From Escherichia coli (GTDB taxonomy: Bacteria > Pseudomonadota > Gammaproteobacteria > Enterobacterales > Enterobacteriaceae), in NCBI RefSeq assembly GCF_022846255.1, contig NZ_AP025682.1: a stretch of DNA of 64,000 bases. The stretch is one strand, 5' to 3'. Position 1 is the first letter of the stretch; every line of letters begins with the position of its first letter. A program made the position numbers and the translations under genes. This document shows, in pieces, positions 10,917 through 19,520 of the stretch. The notes beneath the pieces are model-generated. The model worked only from the letters and a program-made list of their open reading frames with translations. It was not told the origin of the DNA and did no database searches.

Positions 10917-11907
<991 letters not shown>

Positions 11908-18723: not shown

Positions 18724-18738
18724 GTATCTGATATATAT

Positions 18739-18783
18739 CGCCGCATACCGTGTCGGATGCGGCGTACACGCCTTATCTGACCG
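18739..18783. repeat. REP element downstream of rsmC
   Basis: CGCCGCATACCGTGTCGGATGCGGCGTACACGCCTTATCTGACC, typical REP palindrome. Confidence 0.75.
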
Positions 18784-18853
18784 ACAAACGAATTATCCAC
18801 AATCCGCTGATGGACATTTTTCCAGCAATTACACTGCTGTCGATAATTAACTA

Positions 18854-18890
18854 TTGACGAAAAGCTGAAAACCACTAGAATGCGCCTCCG
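18854..18890 (+). promoter_or_regulatory. Promoter of the tRNA-Leu operon
   Basis: TTGACG (-35), 16-nt spacer, TAGAAT (-10), then GC-rich discriminator GCGCCTCC typical of stringently controlled stable-RNA promoters; about 40 nt upstream of the first tRNA. Confidence 0.6.
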
Positions 18891-18922
18891 TGGTAGCAAT
18901 TCTTTTTAAGAATTGATGGTAT

Positions 18923-19009
18923 GCGAAGGTGGCGGAATTGGTAGACGCGCTAGCTTCAGGTGTTAGTGTCCTTACGGACGTGGGGGTTCAAGTCCCCCCC
19001 CTCGCACCA
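18923..19009 (+). tRNA. leuQ: tRNA-Leu (anticodon CAG)
   Basis: 87-nt GCGAAGGTGGCGGAATTGGTAGACGCG...CTCGCACCA with CAG anticodon and long variable arm; first of three tandem copies. Confidence 0.9.
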
Positions 19010-19037
19010 AAAACCACGTTGATATTGCTCGCACTGG

Positions 19038-19124
19038 GCGAAGGTGGCGGAATTGGTAGACGCGCTAGCTTCAGGTGTTAGTGTTCTTACGGACGTGGGG
19101 GTTCAAGTCCCCCCCCTCGCACCA
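19038..19124 (+). tRNA. leuP: tRNA-Leu (anticodon CAG), variant copy
   Basis: Same 87-nt tRNA; one C-to-T difference in the variable arm (GTGTTCTTACGG vs GTGTCCTTACGG), which keeps pairing as G-U. Confidence 0.9.
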
Positions 19125-19158
19125 AACGAGGCGATATCAAAAAAAGTAAGATGACTGT

Positions 19159-19245
19159 GCGAAGGTGGCGGAATTGGTAGACGCGCTAGCTTCAGGTGTT
19201 AGTGTCCTTACGGACGTGGGGGTTCAAGTCCCCCCCCTCGCACCA
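19159..19245 (+). tRNA. leuV: tRNA-Leu (anticodon CAG)
   Basis: Third tandem copy, identical to the first. Confidence 0.9.
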
Positions 19246-19283
19246 ATTATCTTTACTTCTTTTCTTGTCTCTTCACTGTTTTA

Positions 19284-19520
19284 TCACCCCTGATTCAAAT
19301 TCATTATCATCAGCATGATGCCAGCAATAAGCGCCAGGCACGATGGTAGCAAAACGTAATGCCGTAAATGTTTGTGATACAACATCACCGGCGTCAATAC
19401 CAATCCCATCAGAATGACAATCCGCCATTGATCCGGCGATAAATCCGCATACATCAGCCCTGCAATCAGCAATCCCGGCAGCAACACTCCCCAGCCACTG
19501 CCCAGCGTACGTTGCAACAT
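19284..19520 (-). CDS. yjjZ: Small membrane protein YjjZ
   Basis: ORF track 19284..19631; start at internal Met (MLQRTLGSGWGVLLPG); 78 aa; divergent from fhuF. Confidence 0.8.
   Translation of the reverse strand: MLQRTLGSGWGVLLPGLLIAGLMYADLSPDQWRIVILMGLVLTPVMLYHKHLRHYVLLPSCLALIAGIMLMIMNLNQG

Follow-up and report, generated by a model that had tools for sequence, protein, structure and literature searches.

CUG is the most used codon in Escherichia coli. It is decoded by tRNA-Leu1, which has the anticodon CAG and for which the leuQPV operon holds three of the four genes in this organism. The leuQPV transcript of K-12, whose sequence is identical to that of the locus described here, is separated by RNase P independently of RNase E; its termination is Rho-dependent, and the 3′ trailer is removed by PNPase and RNase II (PMC2190699). 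The valV-valW operon, which encodes a different tRNA and comprises two genes, is the other tRNA-only operon for which an RNase E-independent separation by RNase P and a Rho-dependent terminator are reported (PMC2190699). The 87-nt tRNA-Leu(CAG) sequence of leuQ and leuV, which carries C at gene position 48 (C form), is also that of leuT. Unlike the leuQPV genes, leuT is located elsewhere on the chromosome in a mixed operon of four tRNA genes (argX-hisR-leuT-proM), the processing of which is RNase E-dependent (PMC2190699).

The leuP gene differs from this sequence by a single nucleotide, as described previously (PMC12472396), and a tRNA-seq study lists (leuP) apart from (leuQ leuT leuV) (bioRxiv 10.1101/2020.02.21.958157). 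In the legend to Figure 5 of PMC2190699, the four tRNA-Leu1 genes are called identical, a minor slip with respect to the genome sequence. Both the operon and the leuP isodecoder are already known. We are highly confident that the locus analyzed here is the leuQ-leuP-leuV operon and that its leuP gene encodes a long-established, inherited U·G isodecoder, which is most likely neutral or close to neutral.

Identification of the leuQPV locus

The window, that is, the whole stretch of E. coli DNA that was analyzed (64 kb), contains exactly three tRNA-Leu(CAG) genes according to ARAGORN, which returned no further tRNA gene in the 64 kb. All three are located on the plus strand: leuQ at 18923–19009, leuP at 19038–19124, and leuV at 19159–19245. 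Rfam RF00005 matched each copy with 48.5 bits (gathering score 29) over model positions 1–71 of 71, so that two methods agree on the three tandem genes that the earlier note had reported at these positions. All three genes are identical to their K-12 namesakes. The encoded tRNAs are of type II, with a 15-nt variable region including a 4-bp stem and with the anticodon CAG. The discriminator base A84 (Sprinzl 73) and an encoded terminal CCA were read directly from the sequence. Three 87-nt copies of this kind cannot be the product of chance.

A 701-nt query around the genes matched 5425 of 5426 complete E. coli genomes, and the annotation beneath the matches was rsmC, three tRNA-Leu genes, and yjjZ. 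In K-12 MG1655, the order in the direction of transcription is leuQ, leuP, leuV (b4370, b4369, b4368), flanked by the same neighbors rsmC and yjjZ. The synteny rsmC, three tRNA-Leu genes, yjjZ, fhuF is common to the window, K-12, and strain D8, one of the best-matching strains, whose gene order equals that of the window across 40 kb. Between a point upstream of the −35 box and the end of leuV, the window shows no difference from K-12 MG1655 (NC_000913.3; 100% identity), and this applies to both spacers as well as to the T at position 48 of leuP. The identification as leuQPV thus rests on the agreement of the tRNA calls by two methods, the synteny, and the identity with K-12.

The two sequences differ in the flanks only, where K-12 has approximately 77 nt of additional REP/BIME sequence in the rsmC-leuQ intergenic region and a few SNPs are found downstream of leuV. 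The window contains a single REP-like palindrome in the rsmC-leuQ intergenic region (18724–18800), where K-12 has a second REP/BIME unit. Elsewhere in the window, two adjacent matches to the Rfam family naRNA4 (RF02564) were found on the minus strand at 10954–11032 and 11055–11132 (76.5 and 78.9 bits). Comparison of their position with strain D8 places these matches in the yjjW-yjjV intergenic region.

Promoter and leader

The best plus-strand promoter found upstream of leuQ by the consensus scan of the region is TTGACG-16 nt-TAGAAT at 18854–18881, which matches the consensus at 10 of 12 positions and is identical to the leuQPV ("leuV") promoter of K-12. The −35 box TTGACG (18854–18859) is followed after a spacer of 16 nt by the −10 box TAGAAT (18876–18881). 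Directly downstream lies the discriminator GCGCCTCC (18882–18889), in which seven of the eight bases are G or C and which reads [G/T]CGCCTCC in all 14 aligned arrays. Both hexamers and the discriminator are invariant across genera, from Escherichia to Serratia, in the latter of which the sequence between the hexamers is altered. Since PMC2190699 gives no mapped transcription start for leuQPV, the start was placed near G18890 from the distance to the −10 box. The precursor would accordingly possess a 5′ leader of approximately 33 nt (18890–18922), and a 5′ leader on the QPV precursor is indeed seen in Northern blots (PMC2190699).

The sequence features of a stringently controlled stable-RNA promoter are sigma-70 hexamers close to the consensus and, directly after them, a GC-rich discriminator. 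The proposal in the earlier note that a stringent-type promoter with a GC-rich discriminator lies upstream agrees well with this arrangement, and the leuQPV promoter is, as judged by its sequence, of the stable-RNA type. Initiation at the leuV promoter is reportedly under stringent and growth-rate control (Pokholok et al. 1999), and this control together with an activation by Fis is ascribed to the studies of Pokholok et al. (1999) and of Opel et al. (2004), both cited in PMC5137449. In the mechanism that we propose, this single strong sigma-70 stable-RNA promoter would give rise to a tricistronic leuQPV precursor.

Spacers, trailer, and processing

The genes are separated by two different spacers. 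The leuQ-leuP spacer (19010–19037, 28 nt) starts with AAAACC and is orthologous across the Enterobacteriaceae; the leuP-leuV spacer (19125–19158, 34 nt) starts with AACGAG, contains a run of seven A residues, and is orthologous across genera. The length of the A run differs among strains. Downstream of leuV lies an unstructured, C/T-rich and G-poor 3′ trailer (19246–19325; 21 C, 35 T, and 7 G in 80 nt). It is presumed to be a region of Rho-dependent termination, and no terminator-like hairpin was detected on the plus strand after leuV.

The sequences following the CCA ends are CCAAAAACC for leuQ, CCAAACGAG for leuP, and CCAATTATC for leuV. Neither inter-gene spacer begins with U after the internal CCA, which, together with the missing intrinsic terminator, corresponds to the sequence features given by Mohanty & Kushner 2007. 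The post-CCA sequence of leuQ agrees with the text of PMC2190699. In Table 1 of that paper, the trailing sequences of leuQ and leuP are swapped with respect to its own text, which we regard as a minor slip. For the transcript of the window, we propose that RNase P would separate the three tRNAs and mature their 5′ ends without RNase E. The transcript would end in a Rho-dependent manner, the trailer would be trimmed by PNPase and RNase II, and the encoded CCA ends would be kept.

A single uncompensated transition in the variable arm of leuP

In the alignment of the three copies, 86 of 87 columns are invariant. The only difference is found at gene position 48, which is C in leuQ and leuV and T in leuP (window position 19085). 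The variable region comprises the 15 nt from U45 to U59 and forms a stem of four base pairs (G46-C57, U47-A56, C/U48-G55, and C49-G54) closed by the loop UUAC. The partner of position 48 in the third pair of this stem is G55 (19092 in leuP), so that the C48-G55 pair of the C form is a U·G pair in leuP (U form). Alignment and cloverleaf pairing thereby confirm the exchange of C for T in the middle copy (GTTC instead of GTCC opposite GGAC) and the conversion of a G-C into a G-U pair noticed before. The term "compensated" that had been applied to this change has to be corrected, however, as it is one uncompensated transition to a wobble pair that weakens the modeled stem.

The unconstrained minimum free energy folds of single copies did not yield a cloverleaf, and their z-scores were unremarkable (−1.4 and −0.6). 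Because this is usual for unmodified tRNA sequences, the hand-drawn cloverleaf and the isolated variable-arm hairpin were evaluated with nearest-neighbor parameters instead. The energy of the cloverleaf changes from −30.0 kcal/mol in the C form to −27.1 kcal/mol in the U form and that of the isolated hairpin from −5.2 to −2.3 kcal/mol, a modeled cost of the U·G pair of about 2.9 kcal/mol. In the structural ensemble of the unmodified sequence, the stem is formed with a probability of 0.95 in the C form and of 0.22 in the U form. This weaker predicted variable-arm helix may have some functional effect.

Among 215 collected 87-nt homologues, the pair 48:55 is U·G in 140, C-G in 74, and U-A in one gene, and no mismatch was found at this pair. 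Since only these three states occur, which is the ordinary path of helix evolution, the pairing of the two positions is supported. The single U-A pair is found in the middle tRNA-Leu copy of Yersinia aldovae (T48 and A55) and is, as a Watson–Crick pair, the only truly compensated state that was seen.

Two further features of the tRNA genes were recorded. The acceptor pair 5:68 (gene positions 5 and 79, e.g., 18927 and 19001 in the window) is an A·C mismatch in the E. coli-type tRNA. Among the homologues, this pair is A-U in 100, A·C in 70, U·U in 23, G·U in 17, and C·C in five genes, and the variety of these states implies that combinations other than Watson–Crick pairs are tolerated there. 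Each gene also contains a run of eight C residues formed by the 3′ strands of the T-stem and the acceptor stem (18994–19001, 19109–19116, and 19230–19237). In E. coli deficient in mismatch repair, this C8 run is reported to be the dominant hotspot for indels within tRNA genes (PMC8510543). Copies of 88 nt with nine C residues were found in the MG1655 assembly CP025268 (third copy) and in Raoultella ornithinolytica (first copy) and represent either real slippage or assembly errors.

Variation of the array within E. coli

The identity with K-12 includes the T of leuP, and the apparent variant is therefore leuP as present in the reference genome. The frequency of this allele was determined by exact matching of an 88-nt probe, consisting of the 28-nt leuQ-leuP spacer and the 60 nt at the start of leuP, including the T, against 5429 complete E. 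coli records. The exact stretch was present in at least 4526 of them. The same probe with C gave 561 exact records, about 453 of which are partial-coverage matches to other copies, leaving approximately 108 records with a C-form gene after the first spacer. At least 5386 of the 5429 records (99%) have a leuT gene of the C form. A count of the T from the 3′ side (3′ part of leuP plus second spacer) is not clean because of the polymorphic A run in this spacer, and from this side only the number of genomes lacking the junction was used. By these comparisons, the T of leuP is the normal E. coli reference state and not a peculiarity of a strain.

Differences of one base between tandem repeats are a classic site of error, and the T at 19085 might be attributed to the sequencing or assembly of the window, especially as suspect states do occur in some assemblies; in the MG1655 assembly CP025268, for example, the middle copy has C and the third copy contains the run of nine C residues. 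Such an error is practically out of the question here, because the T recurs in the K-12 MG1655 reference, in the large majority of complete E. coli records given above, and in the orthologues of the gene from more than 10 further genera. The comparison with the reference leuQPV sequence, which the earlier note had suggested as a check, thus refutes a sequencing error.

The number of copies is variable. The leuQ-leuP junction (first spacer) is absent in about 450 of 5426 genomes and the leuP-leuV junction (second spacer) in 585 genomes, from which it follows that the copy number of the array is polymorphic in E. coli. Three copies in the order C-T-C are present in K-12 and in the window, and strain GMF065 has three copies in the order C-C-C. 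The O157:H7 strain TR01 and strain ECCTRSRTH03 have two copies (C-C), and these two-copy arrays are products of unequal crossing-over. In O157:H7 Sakai, the array is collapsed to a single C-form gene with an unchanged promoter.

Conservation of the array among Enterobacterales

Arrays linked to rsmC in Salmonella, Citrobacter, Klebsiella, Serratia, Pantoea, Yersinia, and others share the hexamers, the discriminator, orthologous spacers, and the C/T dimorphism with leuQPV. They were collected by scanning the GTDB species representatives for exact matches to the variable arm of the T form, which gave at least 120 loci that were annotated with ARAGORN and with tblastn for RsmC. The scan pattern was the T form only, and the resulting figures inform neither on the frequency of C-only species nor on the ancestral state. 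Among the matches listed, all T-form loci belong to Enterobacterales save a few generically labeled MAGs, and two contexts recur, namely, the tandem Leu(CAG) array beside rsmC and the Arg-His-Leu-Pro operon. Some of the arrays contain two copies. The 34 three-copy arrays among the matches listed are often of the C-T-C type (16 arrays), followed by C-T-T (7), T-T-C (5), T-T-T (4), and C-C-T (2), and 32 of them have T in the middle copy. The order C-T-C was found, among the matches listed, in E. coli, E. albertii, Salmonella enterica subsp. arizonae, Citrobacter, Klebsiella oxytoca, Raoultella, Phytobacter, Pseudocitrobacter, Pseudenterobacter, and three Serratia species. The two spacers differ from each other, and each of them is recognizably orthologous across the C-T-C genera.

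The events seen within E. coli, that is, the arrays C-C-C (GMF065), C-C (TR01 and ECCTRSRTH03), and the single C copy (Sakai), indicate that conversion or unequal crossing-over occurs at this locus, as would be expected if the T were a recent mutation of a strain or lineage that is being lost or fixed via gene conversion. This explanation is nevertheless highly improbable. The spacers within the C-T-C arrays are orthologous among Escherichia, Salmonella, Citrobacter, Klebsiella, Raoultella, Phytobacter, and Serratia, and recurrent independent events would not strike the middle copy each time. We reject a recent origin on the basis of this orthology across genera. Because the order C-T-C, the orthologous spacers, and the promoter are common to these genera, the comparison of sequences indicates that the T of the middle gene is inherited from an ancestor that dates back at least to the core Enterobacteriaceae and plausibly further. 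This ancestor is, by the same comparison, common to Salmonella and Klebsiella and probably also to Serratia.

The tRNA backbones of other lineages differ from the E. coli type at positions 5, 61, 75, 77, and 79. At least three backbones carry both forms of position 48: the E. coli type, the type G61A/C75T/C77T/C79T (Serratia, Pantoea, Pectobacterium, Hafnia, and others), and the type A5G/C79T (Morganella and Xenorhabdus). Within each genome, the backbone changes are common to all copies. In Rahnella (three loci), Superficieibacter, and Citrobacter sp. Awk 4, divergent tRNA-Leu(CAG) copies of 86 nt were found beside the standard ones; their variable arm is shorter and differently built (GTCCTT[T/C/A]GGATG).

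The leuT orthologue was of the T form in the other sampled genera for which the T-selected scan returned a leuT locus. These include Citrobacter, Klebsiella, Raoultella, and Enterobacter (5 plus approximately 40 Arg-His-Leu-Pro loci). With leuT being of the C form in E. coli and of the T form in its relatives, the dosage of the two forms would be 3C:1T in E. coli versus 2C:2T in close relatives. Three genomes, Yersinia similis, Rouxiella aceris, and "Klebsiella sp." BIGb0407, combine a T-T-T array with a T at leuT and are apparently all-T.

Probable neutrality of the leuP isodecoder

The persistence of two forms over this evolutionary distance might suggest that the U·G and C-G isodecoders are functionally distinct and are both kept by selection across Enterobacterales. 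They might differ in stability, modification, processing, the production of tRNA fragments, or the sensitivity to tRNA nucleases, and the U form would then have stayed anchored to the middle copy of the array beside rsmC while other substitutions were homogenized. The modeled weakening of the stem, the occurrence of both forms on at least three lineage-specific backbones whose other substitutions are common to all copies, and the T form of the middle gene in 32 of the 34 three-copy arrays among the matches listed are in line with this explanation, and the survival of the dimorphism while four other substitutions spread to all copies could reflect selection. Short conversion tracts explain this survival equally well, however, because all backbone changes except that at position 5 are located 13 to 31 nt 3′ of position 48. 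The supporting sample was, moreover, drawn by the presence of T.

The array patterns vary freely among genera (CTC, CTT, TTC, TTT, and CCT), which argues against a selected position and also fits short conversion tracts. Neither form appears to be required, given the C-only state at the locus of O157:H7 Sakai, with leuT being of the C form in nearly all E. coli, and the apparently all-T genomes of Y. similis, R. aceris, and "Klebsiella sp." BIGb0407. The LeuRS of E. coli is not known to use the sequence of the variable-arm stem for recognition, which also counts against selection. Taken together, we consider the maintenance of two distinct isodecoders by selection very unlikely, including the functional differences and the anchoring in the middle gene that it would involve. 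Neutrality or near neutrality is most likely for the leuP U·G isodecoder, and the U·G form would be functionally equivalent to the C-G form. We propose that the U·G form persists since the stem is retained with the wobble pair and since the copies rarely undergo gene conversion with one another.

Significance for annotation and tRNA gene dosage

leuQPV is a textbook tRNA operon, and the consequences for genome annotation are small: the T of leuP should be kept as a true allele and not be "corrected". The U form of leuP is ancient and positionally conserved in several genera, and the number of copies in the array ranges from one to three between E. coli strains. These two observations are of use when tRNA-seq reads are mapped or when the gene dosage of the tRNA that decodes CUG is modeled.
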